Sequence record: JX128258
Direction: 5' to 3' (one strand)
Length of the DNA: 64,000 nt
From: Escherichia phage ECML-117
Shown here: in pieces, positions 50,333 through 57,239 of the stretch
How positions within the stretch are numbered: position 1 is the stretch's first letter
Layout: each line of letters opens with the position of its first letter
The notes under the pieces: generated by a model
Told to the model about the DNA's origin: nothing
The model's database searches: none
Seen by the model: the letters and a program-made list of their open reading frames with translations, nothing else
Made by a program: the position numbers and the translations under genes

Positions 50333-50884
50333 TTATGCAGTGTACGGAGTACCGTCTTGATTCAAGCGCACGATAAACTTCAAATCAACGCCGATGATTT
50401 CACGCGTATCAAAGATCACATAGTTGTAACGACGCTGACCAGCAATATTTGGGTTGGTGTGAGAGTCGGTCACAACTTCCTGCGCAACCTGAATGCCTTC
50501 TTCTTTAAAGAACTTGCGCCATTCAGCAAGTTCAGCGGCAGTCACGTGCATACCAAGATGGCTAACCTGATTGTCGTGCGCATCGATGTATTCGATGTTT
50601 TCGTGAATCCAGTTGCAACCTTTTGTATAGTCAAGAATTTCAAGCTCAAGAGGCTTACCAGCGCCGCCATCGGTGCCGTTGCCAGCCTGATAGTTGAAGC
50701 GCAAGTCAGCTTCGTTGGTGCAATCGCCGCGCTGACCCTTAAAGACATCAGCTTCAAATACGCGACCAGTAGCAACAACGTGATCATGGAACCATTCTGT
50801 CAGGCCGATTTTAGCCAGGAAATTCTGTGCGCGCTGAGCACCTGGAATTGACAGGGCGATTTGTTCAATTTTAAAGTGTGGCAT
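50333..50884 (-). CDS. VOC/glyoxalase-fold-like protein (tentative)
   Basis: 183 aa with two beta-alpha-beta-beta-beta-like modules (FKIEQIAL...; SHLGMHV...); weak. Confidence 0.3.
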   Translation of the reverse strand: MPHFKIEQIALSIPGAQRAQNFLAKIGLTEWFHDHVVATGRVFEADVFKGQRGDCTNEADLRFNYQAGNGTDGGAGKPLELEILDYTKGCNWIHENIEYIDAHDNQVSHLGMHVTAAELAEWRKFFKEEGIQVAQEVVTDSHTNPNIAGQRRYNYVIFDTREIIGVDLKFIVRLNQDGTPYTA

Positions 50885-50980
50885 TTTGTTTCCTTAATTA
50901 AATATTATTGATTAATTACTGTGTTATCTTCGTCCTGTTTCTTTTCAGGAGCGGGTGTGACAACTTCAAATGTTCGTGAT

Positions 50981-51664
50981 TTATTTCCCAAATGGAATAT
51001 CAGTACCAGACATAAAACGCCATGCGCCCGTAATTAAGATATGGCGAATGAAGTCAGCAATTACTTGCGGCTCAGTCTCCAATCCATTCATCAACGCCTT
51101 TTTCTGGTATTCAGCAGCATACTCAGGAGTCCAGCCGCGAGTCGCGCAAACAGCATCTTCAATCTGTTTGGACATACCAGTGCCGCGCAACTTGTTAGGA
51201 CTAATAGAAAATACCGTGATCCCGTATTTAGGCGTAAGCTCGTGAGCCATCTGCTTGCTAATCATGAGCGCAGCAGCCTTGGAAGCATTATAACACAAGC
51301 TGGACGTCATAGGAATATGCGCAGCGTTGGAAACGATATTGATCACAAAACCTTTGTTGTCGATAAGACTTTTCAGCGCGGCTTGAGTCGTGTTGACGAA
51401 AGAGAAGGCGTTGGTGTGCATAACGCGATTGAACTCTTCGTAGTTAACATCTTCAAACCAGTTGTTGGAGTTGACGCCAGCACAGTTGATCAAGCCTTCT
51501 ACATCATATGGGCTTAAAATTTCTTTCATCTGTTTCGCGTCGCGGACGTCATATCCGTATGCTGAATCGATTCCAAGCACGTTATGACCGTAAGCGCCAA
51601 GGGTGTCAAAAATAGATTTACCAAGACCGGAATTGGAACCTGTTACAACAATTACTTTTTTCAT
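50981..51664 (-). CDS. short-chain dehydrogenase/reductase (classical SDR)
   Basis: N-terminal VTGSNSGLGKS cofactor motif and catalytic YNASK (YxxxK). Confidence 0.7.
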   Translation of the reverse strand: MKKVIVVTGSNSGLGKSIFDTLGAYGHNVLGIDSAYGYDVRDAKQMKEILSPYDVEGLINCAGVNSNNWFEDVNYEEFNRVMHTNAFSFVNTTQAALKSLIDNKGFVINIVSNAAHIPMTSSLCYNASKAAALMISKQMAHELTPKYGITVFSISPNKLRGTGMSKQIEDAVCATRGWTPEYAAEYQKKALMNGLETEPQVIADFIRHILITGAWRFMSGTDIPFGK

Positions 51665-51729
51665 TTATTTATCCTTTTTGGACTTCGTTTCGATGAGATA
51701 AATATAACTCATCGAAACGCACAAGTAAA

Positions 51730-52602
51730 CTATTTATTGAAATTAATATTGTGGGTGTTGACGAGACGTTCACACATGGCGCTGTAAACACCATCGTCGT
51801 GTATAGAGTCTTCGTGCTTCAGGCCGCTGATTGCAAAGCGTGTAAGCTTGACAATCTTAAGCTCGAACAGATGCCACATGTGGTAGTCTTCCGGCGTTTT
51901 CAACGTTACGCCATTAGGGAAAAGCACCTGCATAACCTGGCCAACCATCACGGCATTATCGCCATAGACAGCGTTGCGCTCACGGAAGGTTGCTGCCATT
52001 GCATCAAGAATATCGGCGGCAGTTGCCGGAGATTGTTCAACTTCCACAGTCTTAGTCTCTTCTTGTCCTGTTGCGCTTGGATCAATTGCTAATTGTTGCA
52101 CCACTTCACCTGCCTTGCAAAGATTAAATGTAAAAGCGATTTTATTTTGAGCAACGGAATTATAATACAATGCTTCATCTTGCATCCGCGCGAGCACGTC
52201 TTGTCGGTCGTCGAATACATTGATGATTCGATAATCGCCGTGCCGCAATGCGTGCGATAGCCATGCAGATTTCATAATAGTTGATGGACGTTTGTCGCCA
52301 TAGTCTCTCATCTTGATTGTAAATTCATCAAAAGGAAAAACATTGTCCAGACGTTCAAAAGTCACTTGTCTGTATTTTTCTGGCCTTGCAGTCCAATATT
52401 CAACCGCCTCACCGCGAAGAGATGCCGACTCTACTGCTGATGCAATGCGAGGATAGAACTGATCATAACCAATACCGCTGTGATAGTCATCATAGTCTGA
52501 CAACGGACCTGCCACCTTTATGCGGTCCAAGCGCCAACGGTCATCAAACAGCGTTCCGTCAAGGTCGAATACGTTTAATATTTGGTTATTTTTAATACTC
52601 AT
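51730..52602 (-). CDS. HAD-superfamily phosphatase/nucleotidase with extra C-terminal domain
   Basis: Motif I FDLDGTLFD near the N-terminus; additional ~110-aa C-terminal domain of unknown type. Confidence 0.55.
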   Translation of the reverse strand: MSIKNNQILNVFDLDGTLFDDRWRLDRIKVAGPLSDYDDYHSGIGYDQFYPRIASAVESASLRGEAVEYWTARPEKYRQVTFERLDNVFPFDEFTIKMRDYGDKRPSTIMKSAWLSHALRHGDYRIINVFDDRQDVLARMQDEALYYNSVAQNKIAFTFNLCKAGEVVQQLAIDPSATGQEETKTVEVEQSPATAADILDAMAATFRERNAVYGDNAVMVGQVMQVLFPNGVTLKTPEDYHMWHLFELKIVKLTRFAISGLKHEDSIHDDGVYSAMCERLVNTHNINFNK

Positions 52603-53402
52603 CCCTTTGACACTCCATCTTTAGCAACTGGATTGTTGGTGATTGGCGCGGCATCCCAAAACTGGATGCGCAACTCTTCTTGCTGTGCCGTGGTATCCAT
52701 CCAATCACGATACCAAGGGCAATGGGCTTTGCCATGACGAGGAAACGCGCATTTACCCATACCGATGCATTGCGGCTGTAGTAAAGGATTAGCCCACGGG
52801 TGCACCTTGAGGACTTCCGCAACCATTGCGCGAAATACTTCTTGATACTCGCCTTGGGTGCGCGTGCACAAGCGGTTGGAAGCCATCTGTTGCAGCGTGC
52901 GCAAGTTGAACTTTGCCATGATATGCGTTTGCATATTAGAAGGCAACACGGCACGTGCATCTTGAATCTCTGCGCCAGCCGCGCGAAGTTCTTGGTATAG
53001 GGCGTCAATGGTCGCCATTGCATCATCCCAGGTGTTAGCCAACTTCAAACGCTGCTCGTCGATTCTCTCGCCGATAACCCTGTCAGGGTCGTCATACTCA
53101 AACGCTTTCGGACGAATCGCATCAAACGCAGAAGACTCCTGAGCGCGGCTGGTGCGTTCTTGATATGCGCCTGTGCGTGTGCGTACCATCTGATGGGTCA
53201 TGTTCTTTGATACATCTGTGATATCAAAAATATAGTCCACAAAGTCAAAAGGTGACTTGATTGTATCGAGCATGTAGCGCCAATGCTCTTGCTTCTCTGA
53301 TTCCGTCATCTCAGAGACAGGCTTACCAGTCATGCGCGTGTTCTTTGTTTCCAGCAAAAGGTCAAGTGCATCTTGGGTGTATCGAATTAATTCAACTTTC
53401 AT
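52599..53402 (-). CDS. ThyX-like (flavin-dependent thymidylate synthase family) protein, divergent
   Basis: VRTRTGAYQERTSR aligns to the ThyX RHRxxSxxxxSxRY motif with His replaced by Thr; NLRTLQQM...EYQE resembles the ThyX NARSLxNL...E motif; extra Cys-rich C-terminus. Confidence 0.45.
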   Translation of the reverse strand: MKVELIRYTQDALDLLLETKNTRMTGKPVSEMTESEKQEHWRYMLDTIKSPFDFVDYIFDITDVSKNMTHQMVRTRTGAYQERTSRAQESSAFDAIRPKAFEYDDPDRVIGERIDEQRLKLANTWDDAMATIDALYQELRAAGAEIQDARAVLPSNMQTHIMAKFNLRTLQQMASNRLCTRTQGEYQEVFRAMVAEVLKVHPWANPLLQPQCIGMGKCAFPRHGKAHCPWYRDWMDTTAQQEELRIQFWDAAPITNNPVAKDGVSKG

Positions 53403-53415
53403 TTTAATTATCCTA

Positions 53416-53862
53416 TTAACGGTAATTCACTAGTTGCTGATCACCAGAGAAGGTGCAATGATAAACGAATTGTGCGTTATAAAGCAACTGAAAACTTTTC
53501 TTTGGTTCACTATTAGCACTCATCGATGTGAATACTTCTGCACCGGAACGGTTTTCACCGATTAAGTTGACAAAGCCGCCAGTTGTGCGAGGTTGAACGA
53601 AAGTGAAGCGTTGCATCCACGGAGTCCGGTTGGCACCTTTACCTGTGAATCCTTGAATCTGAATATTCAGACCTTCTTGCTCGTTCACACCGATGTAAGT
53701 GGTAATCTTTGCACCAGTCGTTGCTGCGGTCTTCCCGTCCATCGCTTCGCAATCGTAAACAGCGATTGAATCGGAAGTGCGGATGGCAGCTTCAGTCGCT
53801 TCCATATACATGGTGCCGAGAATAGCAGTTGCGGCAAGCGCGATTCCAGTGATTCGTTTCAT
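53416..53862 (-). CDS. secreted protein (148 aa)
   Basis: N-terminal signal peptide (ITGIALAATAILGTMYMEATEAA). Confidence 0.45.
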   Translation of the reverse strand: MKRITGIALAATAILGTMYMEATEAAIRTSDSIAVYDCEAMDGKTAATTGAKITTYIGVNEQEGLNIQIQGFTGKGANRTPWMQRFTFVQPRTTGGFVNLIGENRSGAEVFTSMSANSEPKKSFQLLYNAQFVYHCTFSGDQQLVNYR

Positions 53863-53927
53863 TTTCGTTTCCTCTATGAGTTCTGCTTCAATGATTAAAG
53901 TATACGCCCATTGAAGCAGAAAGCAAA

Positions 53928-54923
53928 TTATTTATTAGCAATATAAGCAAATTTTTGATAGTTATTTGCTTTGATGAGTTTTTCGACTTCAACAAGGTCA
54001 TGAGCGACGTCATCAAGCAAAATGTTTCGCCAGGTAGCGAATCTACCGACACTAAAAACGTTCAAATCCATAGTCAGCTGCAGGAGTAGGGCGTGTCGCA
54101 AGTCTTTCGGAATGTCGACAATCTTGCCATATTTCTGGTCGACCTTTTCAACTTCTTCAAGAGCGATATCACTCCATGAAAGGCCAAATGCCGTCAACAC
54201 TTCGTCGACTTCTGCGCGAAGCTTCATGTCACGGTAACGAGTGATGCCTCCAGCGGCTTCAACTGCAGCTTCACTTACGCTGACTAAAGGAATTGTTTCA
54301 ATGATAAGCGTGTCACCAGTAATTGATGCGCGGTAAGTTCTGACGGAGTAGTCAGGGAAGTAAATTGTCTGATACAAATCACACTTACGTTTAATCTTAA
54401 AGCGGTAAACGCGAATGTTTGCTTTATCAAATGAAAAATCAAGCTTTTGATCAATTCCAGCAAGCTTCATCATGACTGGCAGCGGCGACGTGTTGATGAT
54501 TGGCGTCTCGCTATAGCCGCAAAGAGTATCAACAGGAGTATTAAAGAATATGCGGTCACCCAGTTTGTCGACAAGCTGATCATAAAAGTCATCAGGCGCA
54601 ATATAACGCGTTGCAGTCTTAAGCTTCATGATTGAACGGCTGCCAAACTGATTGGTGACCTTCATGGAATACATATTGGCAAGGTTAATTGGGCAATGGT
54701 CATGGTAGTAGTTGCCGCGAAAATACACAGCCTTGTCAACTGTCACGGCCTTAAAGGGGATTCCGGTAATACGGCTTACTTCTTCGCCACGGAAGCGTAG
54801 CAATGCCTTGTGCTGTTGCGCTCGTTCCCCTGCTTCGTACACAACAGAGTTCGGGAAGTGACACGCTGTGATAAGTCCTGCCAGTCCGCCGCCGATAATC
54901 ATTACAGGTTGTTTCATGTTCAT
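53928..54923 (-). CDS. FAD/NAD(P)-binding flavoprotein oxidoreductase
   Basis: N-terminal dinucleotide-binding motif VMIIGGGLAGL; C-terminal GRFATWRN resembles the GR(L/F)A motif of UDP-galactopyranose-mutase-like enzymes (tentative). Confidence 0.5.
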   Translation of the reverse strand: MNMKQPVMIIGGGLAGLITACHFPNSVVYEAGERAQQHKALLRFRGEEVSRITGIPFKAVTVDKAVYFRGNYYHDHCPINLANMYSMKVTNQFGSRSIMKLKTATRYIAPDDFYDQLVDKLGDRIFFNTPVDTLCGYSETPIINTSPLPVMMKLAGIDQKLDFSFDKANIRVYRFKIKRKCDLYQTIYFPDYSVRTYRASITGDTLIIETIPLVSVSEAAVEAAGGITRYRDMKLRAEVDEVLTAFGLSWSDIALEEVEKVDQKYGKIVDIPKDLRHALLLQLTMDLNVFSVGRFATWRNILLDDVAHDLVEVEKLIKANNYQKFAYIANK

Positions 54924-55055
54924 TTGTCCTTTGTGGGTGATATGAGAAGTATAATAGCTAAATTATTTTACAGCAACAAGTCATTTTATTTAGTACAGAT
55001 GAAAAAAGACCCACAACAAGTGTGGGTCAATTACCGCTGCATAACCGTCCTAAGG

Positions 55056-55901
55056 TTATTCCGCTTGATCACCGTCTTCGGCATCGTCGTTGGATTCAAC
55101 ATCGACAAACTCGATGTGACCCATCTCTTCCAGCTTGCTCAGGTAGGAGCGAACGGAAGCGCCAAACAGTTGATCTTTAACTTTTTCGCCCAGCTCATCG
55201 ATAGACTGCGCCACGCCAACTTCGCCTTCTTTGATCGCCGCCAGAACGCGTCCACGGGTGGAGTGCTCTTGCGGCTGGCTCAGGCCATTGCCAGTGTAGA
55301 TGAAGTGAGTAGCTTTTGCACGACGCTGACCGTTTGCCTTTTTAGCGGCCTTACGTTCTGCGATGGCTTTGCGACGTTCTTCAGCTTCTTTCTTACGCTG
55401 TTCTTTCTGCTGTTCTGCAGCTTCTTTCGCCGCAATCTTAGCAGCTTCACGCTCTGCCTTGCGTTTCGCTTTAGCTTCTTCTTTAGCCTTCTCTTTTTCG
55501 GCCTTCGCTGCAGCACGGGCTTGATCACGCTCTGCTTTCTTAGCAGCAGCTTGCTCAGCTTTCAGACGCTTGGCTTCTTCTTTAGCCTTCGCCTTTTCGA
55601 TTTCTTTTGCTGCTTTAGCGGCTTCACGCTCTGCCTTCTTAGCAGCAGCCTTTTCTGCACGCTCTTTGGCTTTCTTCGCTGCTTCTTCAGCACGTTTCTG
55701 AGCCTTCTCATCAGCAGCCTGCTTACGTTTCAGTGCAGCTTCTTCACGCTTGGCTTGTTTTTCCTGCTCACGCTTTTGGCGTTTTTCTTCGGCTTCTTTC
55801 TTTTTAGCCAGGCGTTTTTCTTCAGCCACGCGACGACGTTCTGCTGCAGCTGCTTGTTTTTCTTCTTTAGATAATACTTTGATTGCTTCGGCCATGTTCA
55901 C
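55056..55901 (-). CDS. Lys/Ala/Glu-rich coiled-coil protein with C-terminal globular domain
   Basis: About 190 aa of AEEKR/AKKA low-complexity repeats, then a ~80-aa non-repetitive acidic C-terminus; DNA shows internal tandem repeats. Confidence 0.55.
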   Translation of the reverse strand: MNMAEAIKVLSKEEKQAAAAERRRVAEEKRLAKKKEAEEKRQKREQEKQAKREEAALKRKQAADEKAQKRAEEAAKKAKERAEKAAAKKAEREAAKAAKEIEKAKAKEEAKRLKAEQAAAKKAERDQARAAAKAEKEKAKEEAKAKRKAEREAAKIAAKEAAEQQKEQRKKEAEERRKAIAERKAAKKANGQRRAKATHFIYTGNGLSQPQEHSTRGRVLAAIKEGEVGVAQSIDELGEKVKDQLFGASVRSYLSKLEEMGHIEFVDVESNDDAEDGDQAE

Positions 55902-56054
55902 AGTCCTTAAATAAATTAGTTTATTTTATATTCCCCGTTTGGGATAACTTAATTATGCCTTCAGTCGCCGCCAGTAGCAACTAAAAACTCTGGCGGCAAT
56001 GCCACTTTAATTAAACTGATTTTCAGTTTTATTTTTCGTAAATTTACGTCAACA

Positions 56055-57239
56055 TTAACGCGCTTTCAAATCACGGTACACAGTCAGATTCTTCTTAGCG
56101 CGGGTAATAGCCGTATACATCATCTTGGCATACGGAACGCCGCGCAAGATTTCTTCCAGCACGCACACATTGTCCCACTCGCTGCCTTGCGATTTGTGCA
56201 CCGTTATGACATAGCCATAGTCCATTCCTCCAACAGCGCGTTGGGCCTCTTTGCGCACTTCCTGATCAGTAGAGAAGGAAAGAGGATTTATCTTCACCTT
56301 TATATCTTTGCCATCGGTAAGCGAGCGCAAATTGACATACATTATTTCATTAGACTCATCTTCATCCCTTTCAAAGTCCGGCACTGGCTCATAACTAATA
56401 ACAATTCCTTGTTCGCCATTACAGAATCCTGGCCCGTGTTGGTTGAATGTGCAAATAACTTTCTCGCCGATTCCTGGCATTGGCGTTATACGTCCGCTCA
56501 CTTGTCGCAATAATGAATTCCATTTATCTTTGGTGCTATTATAAGAGCAAATAATTTGATCATCTTCGCCCATAAATTTCTTCAGAGCGGTAACGCGCGG
56601 CGATTCAGCCAACACCTTTACATCATCATATTCACGCGGAGGAAGTCGGTTGCCCTGTCGCACGAAGAAGGAAGCGCGGATTATGTTGGACTCTTTCCCC
56701 TGCCGCATGATTTCGGTCAACAGTACGTCAACTGCATCTTCAGTAAAGTAGGCAGCGGCTTTTACCGGAGGGACTTGTCCAATGTCGCCTAATGCCAGCA
56801 CAGGGATGCGGTGATCAAGAAGGCGTTCTGTGTCCCACTCACCGACCATTGAAGCTTCATCAAGGACGACAAGATGCGGCCTTTCATCAAGAGTTGACTT
56901 TCTTGCGAATATTGGTTCATTGTCATCGTTAACGCCGCGCACGTTATAGATGAACTGGTGAAGGGTCTTAGCGCCACGACACCCTTTCTGCTTCAATCGG
57001 CTGGCTGCCTTTCCGGTCGGCGCAATATAAATGGCACCGTACTCACCGACACAACGGCGCACAATCTCACGCGCAATAGAGGTTTTACCTGTTCCTGCAT
57101 AGCCAGCGATGAAAAATACGCGCTTCGTTGTTTTACCGTCCTGCAATCGCTTGTACCATGCAACGGCCTTTTCGATGGCATCAATTTGTTGCGCGTTGAA
57201 CTGAATCACCGGCTCATCATTAAATTCTGGAATGTTCAT
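56055..57239 (-). CDS. Dda/RecD-like superfamily 1 DNA helicase
   Basis: Walker A GYAGTGKTS, Walker B VVLDEASMV, C-terminal VITVHKSQGSEW motif. Confidence 0.8.
   Translation of the reverse strand: MNIPEFNDEPVIQFNAQQIDAIEKAVAWYKRLQDGKTTKRVFFIAGYAGTGKTSIAREIVRRCVGEYGAIYIAPTGKAASRLKQKGCRGAKTLHQFIYNVRGVNDDNEPIFARKSTLDERPHLVVLDEASMVGEWDTERLLDHRIPVLALGDIGQVPPVKAAAYFTEDAVDVLLTEIMRQGKESNIIRASFFVRQGNRLPPREYDDVKVLAESPRVTALKKFMGEDDQIICSYNSTKDKWNSLLRQVSGRITPMPGIGEKVICTFNQHGPGFCNGEQGIVISYEPVPDFERDEDESNEIMYVNLRSLTDGKDIKVKINPLSFSTDQEVRKEAQRAVGGMDYGYVITVHKSQGSEWDNVCVLEEILRGVPYAKMMYTAITRAKKNLTVYRDLKAR

Follow-up and report, generated by a model that had tools for sequence, protein, structure and literature searches.

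The window analysed here is a stretch of 64,000 nucleotides (nt) from Escherichia phage ECML-117 (sequence record JX128258), and the gene considered is a minus-strand coding sequence (CDS) at 55056..55895 (stop codon 55056-55058, ATG 55893-55895), which encodes a 279-residue member of the phage protein family PHROG 4765. Most of this protein is predicted to form one long, charged and very regular helix (the rod), followed by a basic arm, a predicted winged-helix domain and a short acidic tail. Between positions 54800 and 56200 the window is 95-99% identical to 27 sequenced Wifcevirus phages, including FEC19, WFC, WFH, Mansfield, vB_Eco4M-7 and the BASEL phages Bas98-101. Wifcevirus are myophages of E. 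coli and Shigella with genomes of 66-72 kb, are distant kin of the Pseudomonas Pbunavirus (PB1-like) phages, and show considerable resistance to restriction (PMC11990801). The rod/winged-helix gene is the second of a leftward-transcribed block that starts with a Dda-like superfamily 1 helicase gene (56055..57239, minus strand; Pfam AAA_30 and UvrD_C_2, PHROG 325). A flavoprotein-like gene, a small open reading frame (ORF) and a ThyX-like gene come after it, and the block continues with genes for a HAD-type phosphatase, a short-chain dehydrogenase and a glyoxalase-family protein and with epsilon-like and alpha-like genes of DNA polymerase III (Pol III). The initial annotation, made from the sequence alone, had assigned the gene to the replication module, in agreement with its position between the helicase and flavoprotein-like genes and with the replication and nucleotide-metabolism content of the block. 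The same placement was found in every locus inspected; the gene directly follows the Dda-like helicase gene in eight sequenced phages, including PB1, KPP12, PCSE1, WR01, XcP1, Gekk3-15 and tabernarius, and small ORFs lie between the two in three metagenomic contigs.

The reading frame initially proposed, 55056..55901, was recovered on the minus strand in the ORF list. Its start is almost certainly the ATG at 55895, giving 279 residues, rather than the GTG at 55899-55901, because the ribosome-binding site AAGGA (55904..55908, minus strand; read directly, and annotated as such in phage Mansfield) lies 8 nt upstream of the ATG and only 2 nt from the GTG, an unlikely start at that spacing, and because an 840-nt CDS is given in every inspected GenBank relative that annotates the gene. 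The opposite strand carries an ORF of 354 codons, rich in F, L and S (54810..55874, plus strand), which overlaps the flavoprotein gene and the terminator and which had been named as the possible alternative product. Among nine Wifcevirus alleles (94.2-99.8% nucleotide identity) 83 sites are variable; read in the minus-strand frame, 74 of them are third codon positions and 71 are silent, and read in the opposite-strand frame, 75 change an amino acid. Phage Mansfield also has an in-frame stop within the opposite-strand ORF, which is ruled out as the translated product by these two observations and is considered a shadow ORF, not a gene. The protein of vB_Eco4M-7 (locus tag 83), 100% identical to the window protein, was found by liquid chromatography-tandem mass spectrometry (MS) of the phage purified on caesium chloride (CsCl), with 7 peptides, 25.8% coverage and a score of 1197.6, and the 31.1-kDa 'TolA protein' of ECML-117 was likewise detected by MS (PMC7048862). 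It is thus the minus strand that is translated, as seen from the codon-position pattern, the Mansfield stop and the detection of an identical protein; the gene is real and translated, and the purifying selection on it is strong and extends to the low-complexity part.

Residues 1-195 are composed of 30% A, 24% K, 20% E and 11% R and carry a net charge of +28. A single uninterrupted alpha-helix is predicted for residues 10-188 (55332..55868, minus strand) by AlphaFold2 run on the single sequence, with a predicted local distance difference test (pLDDT) of 92-96 and a length of about 27 nm if the helix is straight. This model and the composition bear out a long charged helix ahead of a separate C-terminal domain, as had been read from the sequence. 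The rod does not have the features of a classical coiled coil, because only 7 of its 179 residues are hydrophobic residues other than Ala and no heptad seam is present: the occupancy of a and d positions by A, I, L, V or M was 0.27-0.41 across the phases, for a background of 0.35. A heptad coiled coil (period 3.5) was therefore rejected, the dominant period being 3.7. At this value (3.7 residues, or 11/3, a hendecad) the periodicity of K and R peaks, and none of 300 shuffles reached it. One hendecad register runs through 16 rows of 11 residues; its positions 0, 3, 7 and 10 hold 43 K/R and 2 acidic residues, its positions 2, 5, 8 and 9 hold 28 acidic (E/D) and 8 basic residues, and about 180 degrees separate the basic face from the acidic one on the predicted helix.

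This arrangement is a property of the family. The 3.7-residue periodicity of K/R was reached by no shuffle out of 300 in 17 of 21 members and by at most 2 in 20 of 21, and the phase offset between K/R and E/D was 167-221 degrees in all 16 members tested. Opposite-charge pairs were weakly enriched at i+4 (z = 1.8), the spacing of classical ER/K single helices, and more strongly at i+5 (z = 3.2), and same-sign pairs were enriched at i+7 (z = 3.4) and i+8 (z = 3.0), a distribution that suits charges sorted onto separate faces better than the ER/K pattern. Within Wifcevirus, codons 1-195, which include the rod, have 49 silent and 2 amino-acid-changing polymorphic codons; the regularity of the rod is selected and not a product of drift. 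The net charge of the rod is +25 in the window protein, the most basic of the family, and +2 to +13 in most other members; compared with these, its N-terminus is also very short and its tail short.

The initial annotation had described near-perfect peptide repeats encoded by tandem DNA repeats that might expand or contract. No exact peptide repeats were found, and what stands of this description is the strict 11-residue charge periodicity. At the DNA level, Tandem Repeats Finder returned one weak array (12 bp x 2.7, score 41), so that true tandem repeats were rejected; imperfect direct repeats are present, with 86-90% identity over 30-35 nt and spacings of 33, 99 or 264 nt, all multiples of 11 codons. 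The repeats spaced by 99 nt (repeat families D1, D5 and D6, 86-90% identity over 19-35 nt) are explained by an old internal duplication of 33 residues, or three hendecads, which was recognised by comparing residues 84-116 with residues 117-149 (55449..55646, minus strand). The suggested instability of repeat number among isolates was not seen, all nine Wifcevirus alleles being 840 nt long. The only clean length change found was one 11-residue rod unit in Xanthomonas phage XcP1 compared with a 91%-identical relative; other lineages of the family have their own duplications of 11 or 22 residues, and the rod measures about 127 to 193 residues across the family. From these comparisons, rod length appears to change in hendecad units over longer times.

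The C-terminal part (residues 196-279, net charge -11) had been called a distinct acidic domain. It is a distinct domain, made up of the conserved basic arm, the winged helix (residues 196-265, roughly neutral) and an acidic tail of 14 residues. The arm (RRAKATH) and the predicted winged-helix domain together span residues 190-265 (55101..55328, minus strand). The structure model, computed for residues 186-279 with a small alignment, has a core pLDDT of 87-90 and a predicted template modelling score of 0.64, and comprises a strand (197-200), helix H1 (213-222), a strand (229-231), helices H2 (232-238) and H3 (248-257, VRSYLSKLEE) and a last strand (261-264), that is, the three-helix core with beta strands of a winged helix, with an H3 motif xVRxxLxKLEExGxI. 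A Foldseek search against the PDB gave no match with E below 0.48. The fold neighbours are only generic winged helices, many of them DNA-binding regulators, and include the protein-binding winged helices RPA32C and PolB1-binding protein 2. Across 36 aligned domains S212 never varies, and R192, R214, G245, R249, L252, K254 and L255 reach 90% conservation or more; those conserved residues that are polar are basic, and they fall in the arm (RRxKATH), at the start of H1 and in H3. It is at these three places that many DNA-binding winged helices touch DNA. The acidic tail is VESNDDAEDGDQAE (residues 266-279; 55059..55100, minus strand); the segment that follows the winged helix has 5-59 residues and a net charge of -1 to -18 in 22 of 24 scored relatives, with one relative at +1 and one unparsed.

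Several signals suggest that the gene forms a unit of its own. A strong intrinsic terminator lies directly after the stop codon (55002..55028, minus strand), with the hairpin GACCCACACTTGTTGTGGGTC followed by T6; a terminator is annotated there in Mansfield, and a comparable hairpin with a T run lies in the gap between the rod/winged-helix and flavoprotein genes of three metagenomic PB1-like contigs. Upstream, the 159-nt gap downstream of the helicase gene holds a candidate promoter (TTGCTA-17-CATAAT; 55952..55980, minus strand), one of 3 sigma-70-like sites given by the consensus scan, for 0.9 expected. All 25 Arg codons of the gene are CGT or CGC, compared with 72% in 8 other, neighbouring phage genes, and GCT (42%), GAA (76%) and AAA are also favoured. 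The ribosome-binding site, the terminator, a promoter identified by consensus match and this high-expression codon set are signs of a separate, highly expressed unit, and the codon set, the transcription-unit signals and the MS score together point to an abundant protein. A further terminator-like hairpin was noticed at 55993-56005 (minus strand), about 50 nt past the stop codon of the Dda-like helicase gene, which would put a terminator on either side of the rod/winged-helix gene.

Membership in PHROG 4765 was established by a full-length profile match (E = 2.4e-84, residues 1-279 on profile positions 14-271 of 294). The family is catalogued as function-unknown, and its named members are ORF66/gp69 of PB1, gp67 of 14-1, ORF65 of KPP12 and the 'TolA protein' of BcepF1 and MTx. 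Members share the same architecture; the gene is adjacent to the helicase gene in PB1, KPP12 and 14-1, and the next gene is flavoprotein-like in PB1 and KPP12. The C-terminal domain is 53% identical to that of PB1 ORF66, and a tblastn search with the C-terminal part retrieved 355 phage records at 37-57% identity, mostly Pbunavirus, with phages of Serratia, Salmonella, Xanthomonas, Burkholderia, Pantoea and Aeromonas in addition, under the labels 'hypothetical', 'TolA' and 'putative structural protein'. Scanned exhaustively with HMMER, 1.84 billion representative proteins yielded only 42 clusters, of 50 to 354 residues, of which the closer ones share the design of rod, winged helix and tail. 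A word-indexed protein search gave 2 partial, rod-poor proteins for the C-terminal domain and 6 for an alignment of 7 domains; full-length low-complexity members seem to have been missed, so that these counts understate the family. No match was found in Pfam for the whole protein (E <= 0.1), and the C-terminal 93 residues matched only DUF6240 (E = 0.064, below its cut-off). No NCBIfam model reached its curated cut-off, no family among the PADLOC defence and counter-defence models matched at E <= 0.1, the PDB held no significant match to either the single sequence or a profile, and a fold search of BFVD returned family members only.

Seven distant homologs (P0036 and P0038-P0043) lack the rod and have instead a linker and an N-terminal domain of unrelated sequence, and in one of them (P0041) the linker is of the type (AAKKAAAPAKK)n known from bacterial H1-like proteins and AlgP. 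Many homologs (P0009, P0013, P0016, P0022, P0027, and the one at 2191-3333 of L009) open with a His-rich MSHxHHxH before the rod, possibly a metal-binding N-terminus, which is absent in the window protein. In the distant homologs from metagenomic contigs L018, L020 and L021 another N-terminal domain is present (..LVATYNALTGKxIKKFESR..), which in L020 also opens the protein encoded by the upstream neighbour; the surroundings of these three include DUF2786/DUF7168 and DUF932 genes, typical of the entry regions of mobile elements.

The downstream neighbour (53928..54923, minus strand) encodes a flavoprotein-like protein of 331 residues with an N-terminal GGGLAGL dinucleotide-binding motif, which belongs to PHROG 4828 and has no Pfam match. 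Its counterparts at the family loci have about 320 residues and an N-terminal GxGxxG, and one record describes it as UDP-galactopyranose-mutase-like (HHpred); the flavoprotein-like family comprises 1955 clusters in a large protein collection. The flavoprotein gene directly follows the winged-helix gene in nearly all loci. The two genes abut or overlap in all five distant homologs for which downstream sequence is available, which suggests translational coupling, and a ThyX gene comes next in L021 and L022; the pair is kept in all PB1-like loci inspected except that of tabernarius, and the two families were found in nearly the same phage records (355 for the winged-helix family and 360 for the flavoprotein family). 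Exceptions in both directions led us to downgrade an obligatory pairing, and the flavoprotein is regarded as a usual companion. In Rhizobium phage RHph_Y65 the flavoprotein and ThyX genes are present, and none of the five neighbouring ORFs that were tested is a winged-helix homolog; Pseudomonas syringae phage tabernarius keeps the rod/winged-helix gene beside the Dda-like helicase gene, and a tblastn search of its whole genome gave no match to the flavoprotein, ORF148, ThyX, HAD phosphatase, short-chain dehydrogenase or glyoxalase.

The ThyX-like protein (52599-53402, minus strand) reads VRTRTGAYQERTSR at the site where the canonical ThyX motif is RHR...S. The His-to-Thr change is shared with a distant metagenomic relative (L022, 2514-2999) and might signal a different product, for example a hydroxymethylated base. 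Sugar-type hypermodified thymidine was recently found at about a quarter of T, in a TG motif, in the DNA of the Pbunavirus F8 and 14-1 (PMC12191111). The block at 50333-54923 (minus strand), which comprises the flavoprotein-like gene, a 148-residue ORF, the ThyX-like gene, a HAD/PNKP-type phosphatase gene, the short-chain dehydrogenase gene and the glyoxalase gene, adjoins the polymerase genes and is missing as a whole from tabernarius, is a candidate for the genes behind this Pbunavirus hypermodification (PMC12191111). In the MS data from CsCl-purified Wifcevirus the glyoxalase-family protein was present with a score of 718, and the unknown proteins gp70 and gp71 of vB_Eco4M-7 were present too; either several products of the replication and nucleotide block are packaged or they are abundant contaminants of virion preparations (PMC7048862).

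Comparison with characterised systems was made separately for the whole protein and for the rod. The initial suggestion of a histone-H1-like protein holds in outline: linker histones H1/H5, AlgP and Hc1 share with the window protein a winged-helix fold and a Lys/Ala-rich region. The two tests proper to H1, a match to the globular domain and an acid-poor basic tail, were negative. No linker-histone match was obtained from Pfam; in the Foldseek results 1uss ranks 23rd (E 3.1) and 1hst 50th (E 8.6), with a query-normalised TM-score of about 0.35; and the charged region of the window protein differs in being N-terminal to the fold, helical, 20% Glu and, in most family members, charge-balanced. With isoelectric points from 4.8 to 9.6 in the family, of which the window protein is the most basic member, a simple model of a histone-like polycation is unfit. 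KfrA of plasmid RK2, archaeal Sso10a and, more loosely, H-NS combine a small DNA-binding fold with a long helical rod; they are abundant and have no enzymatic activity, their genes lie next to those for replication or partition, and their rods are dimerising coiled coils with hydrophobic heptads. In the window protein, by contrast, the rod has no hydrophobic seam and a period of 11/3, the order of domains is the reverse of that in KfrA and Sso10a, and no homology was detected. DNA organisers of the KfrA and Sso10a type, with a rod and a winged helix, would be the nearest functional analogues. As for the rod alone, ER/K single alpha-helices show that a helix of charged residues and Ala can be long and stable without a hydrophobic core, and in group-3 LEA proteins and apolipoproteins an 11-residue periodicity gives straight faces; the window rod differs from these in sorting its charges onto opposite faces and in having no hydrophobic, lipid-binding face. 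Charged single alpha-helices and 11-mer repeat helices may be taken as its nearest physical analogues.

We tentatively favour, as a possible rather than a probable reading, that the protein is an abundant DNA-associated architectural or replication accessory protein. It would be non-enzymatic and would act on phage DNA during replication. Anchoring to DNA would be provided by the RRxK of the arm and by R249 and K254 of H3, together with S212 and R214 where H1 begins, and the 27-nm rod would be laid on or between DNA duplexes through its basic face. Alternatively or additionally, rods might pair side by side, basic to acidic face, so that phage DNA would be stiffened, bridged or coated, and the acidic tail might compete with DNA or recruit a partner, in the manner of the acidic tails of SSB-type proteins. 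Recovery with purified virions would be explained, on this proposal, by a protein that stays bound to DNA. The conserved basic residues of the predicted winged helix, the charge faces, the replication-module context and the H1/AlgP-type linker of the distant homolog P0041 are consistent with such a role, as is tabernarius, which keeps the gene and the helicase despite the loss of the flavoprotein/ThyX block.

Several observations weigh against it. The winged-helix domain is roughly neutral across the family (-4 to +3), about half of the members are net acidic, and the rod of the window protein, at +25, is an outlier in a family with rods mostly at +2 to +13. A straight basic stripe cannot follow the groove of DNA. 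The copurification with virions may be contamination, since a DNA helicase and a glyoxalase-family protein were also present in the vB_Eco4M-7 preparation, and a putative 3-oxoacyl reductase in that of ECML-117 (PMC7048862). No functional study of a PHROG 4765 protein was found in the literature.

Another explanation is that the protein is a non-catalytic targeting or scaffolding partner of the flavoprotein-like enzyme and the ThyX-like gene product in a thymidine hypermodification machinery, its winged helix binding DNA (for example in a TG context) or the enzyme. The abutting or overlapping genes of the five distant homologs, the ThyX genes that come next in two of them, the near-identical distribution of the two families, the hypermodified thymidine in the TG motif of F8 and 14-1 (PMC12191111) and the restriction resistance of Wifcevirus (PMC11990801) all speak for such a partnership; since the genes are separable both ways, as RHph_Y65 and tabernarius show, and a terminator stands between them in PB1-like phages, we consider it unlikely. 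A role as replisome adaptor, with the rod as a spacer and a winged helix that would bind a protein (the Dda-like helicase or the Pol III-type polymerase being candidate partners), fits the adjacency of the helicase gene in most genomes, tabernarius included, the neutral to acidic winged-helix domain with its acidic tail, and the presence of RPA32C and PolB1-binding protein 2 among the fold matches. A spacer would need another conserved module at its far end, and none is present, as the rod shows no conservation at its N-terminal end; in three metagenomic relatives the gene and the helicase gene have small ORFs between them, and the exposed residues that the fold conserves are basic, which makes an adaptor quite doubtful.

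A genuine virion component, either enclosed with the genome in the head or bound to the particle, and possibly delivered into the cell for a role early in infection, would account for the MS data, in which the protein had a score (1197.6) comparable to that of the portal protein (1112) in CsCl-purified vB_Eco4M-7 and its 31.1-kDa counterpart was detected in ECML-117 (PMC7048862), and for the label 'putative structural protein' in many Pbunavirus, Xanthomonas and Serratia phage records. That label could not be traced to data in the papers on JG024, NH-4, KPP12, KTN6/KT28, the 14-1 cocktail, E217 and Pa193, however, and the gene lies in the replication module and not among the structural genes; non-structural proteins (the glyoxalase-family protein, the DNA helicase and the 3-oxoacyl reductase) were in the same samples (PMC7048862), and the main texts of the E217 and Pa193 cryo-electron microscopy atlases, as searched, do not mention the protein, so that we judge this role to be rather unlikely. 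Likeness to TolA had also been suggested by the initial annotation and is what the automated labels 'TolA protein' of several records imply; the protein would then be an envelope protein that spans or hijacks the Tol-Pal system. These labels come from the Lys/Ala/Glu-rich helical composition, in which the long predicted helix resembles domain II of TolA; this likeness is compositional and not one of homology. Of the three defining features of TolA the two others fail. The N-terminus MAEAIKVLSKEEK holds neither a membrane anchor nor a signal peptide, the highest mean Kyte-Doolittle hydropathy over 19 residues being 0.61 (at residue 217), and TolA domain III was found neither by Pfam nor by PDB sequence search, the predicted C-terminal fold being a winged helix; NCBIfam gave no TolA match either. 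The window protein thus differs from TolA in its predicted cytoplasmic location, without anchor or TolA C-terminal domain, and a TolA-like role is very improbable. Finally, the protein might be a phage genome-coating factor of a new kind, whose 27-nm helices, Janus-like in their charges and held in place by the winged helix, would run along the DNA, cooperate with the flavoprotein/ThyX block in making or placing the thymidine hypermodification, and travel in the virion to the next host to aid restriction resistance; we regard this as an improbable, speculative extension.

For the annotation of these phages, the 'TolA' label fails its tests and the 'structural protein' label is untraced to data, and if the product is only an abundant, sticky protein, the value of the present analysis lies in this correction. 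The gene is nonetheless expressed, strongly selected and conserved, as a member of a function-unknown family, throughout a phage group in therapeutic use, the PB1-like Pbunavirus being among the phages most used against Pseudomonas aeruginosa, and Wifcevirus phages are reported to replicate unusually fast. No characterised counterpart was found for its combination of a charge-sorted helix in an 11-residue register, a winged helix and an acidic tail. If the protein does organise or shield DNA, or joins in thymidine hypermodification, it would bear on phage replication and on the evasion of host nucleases.

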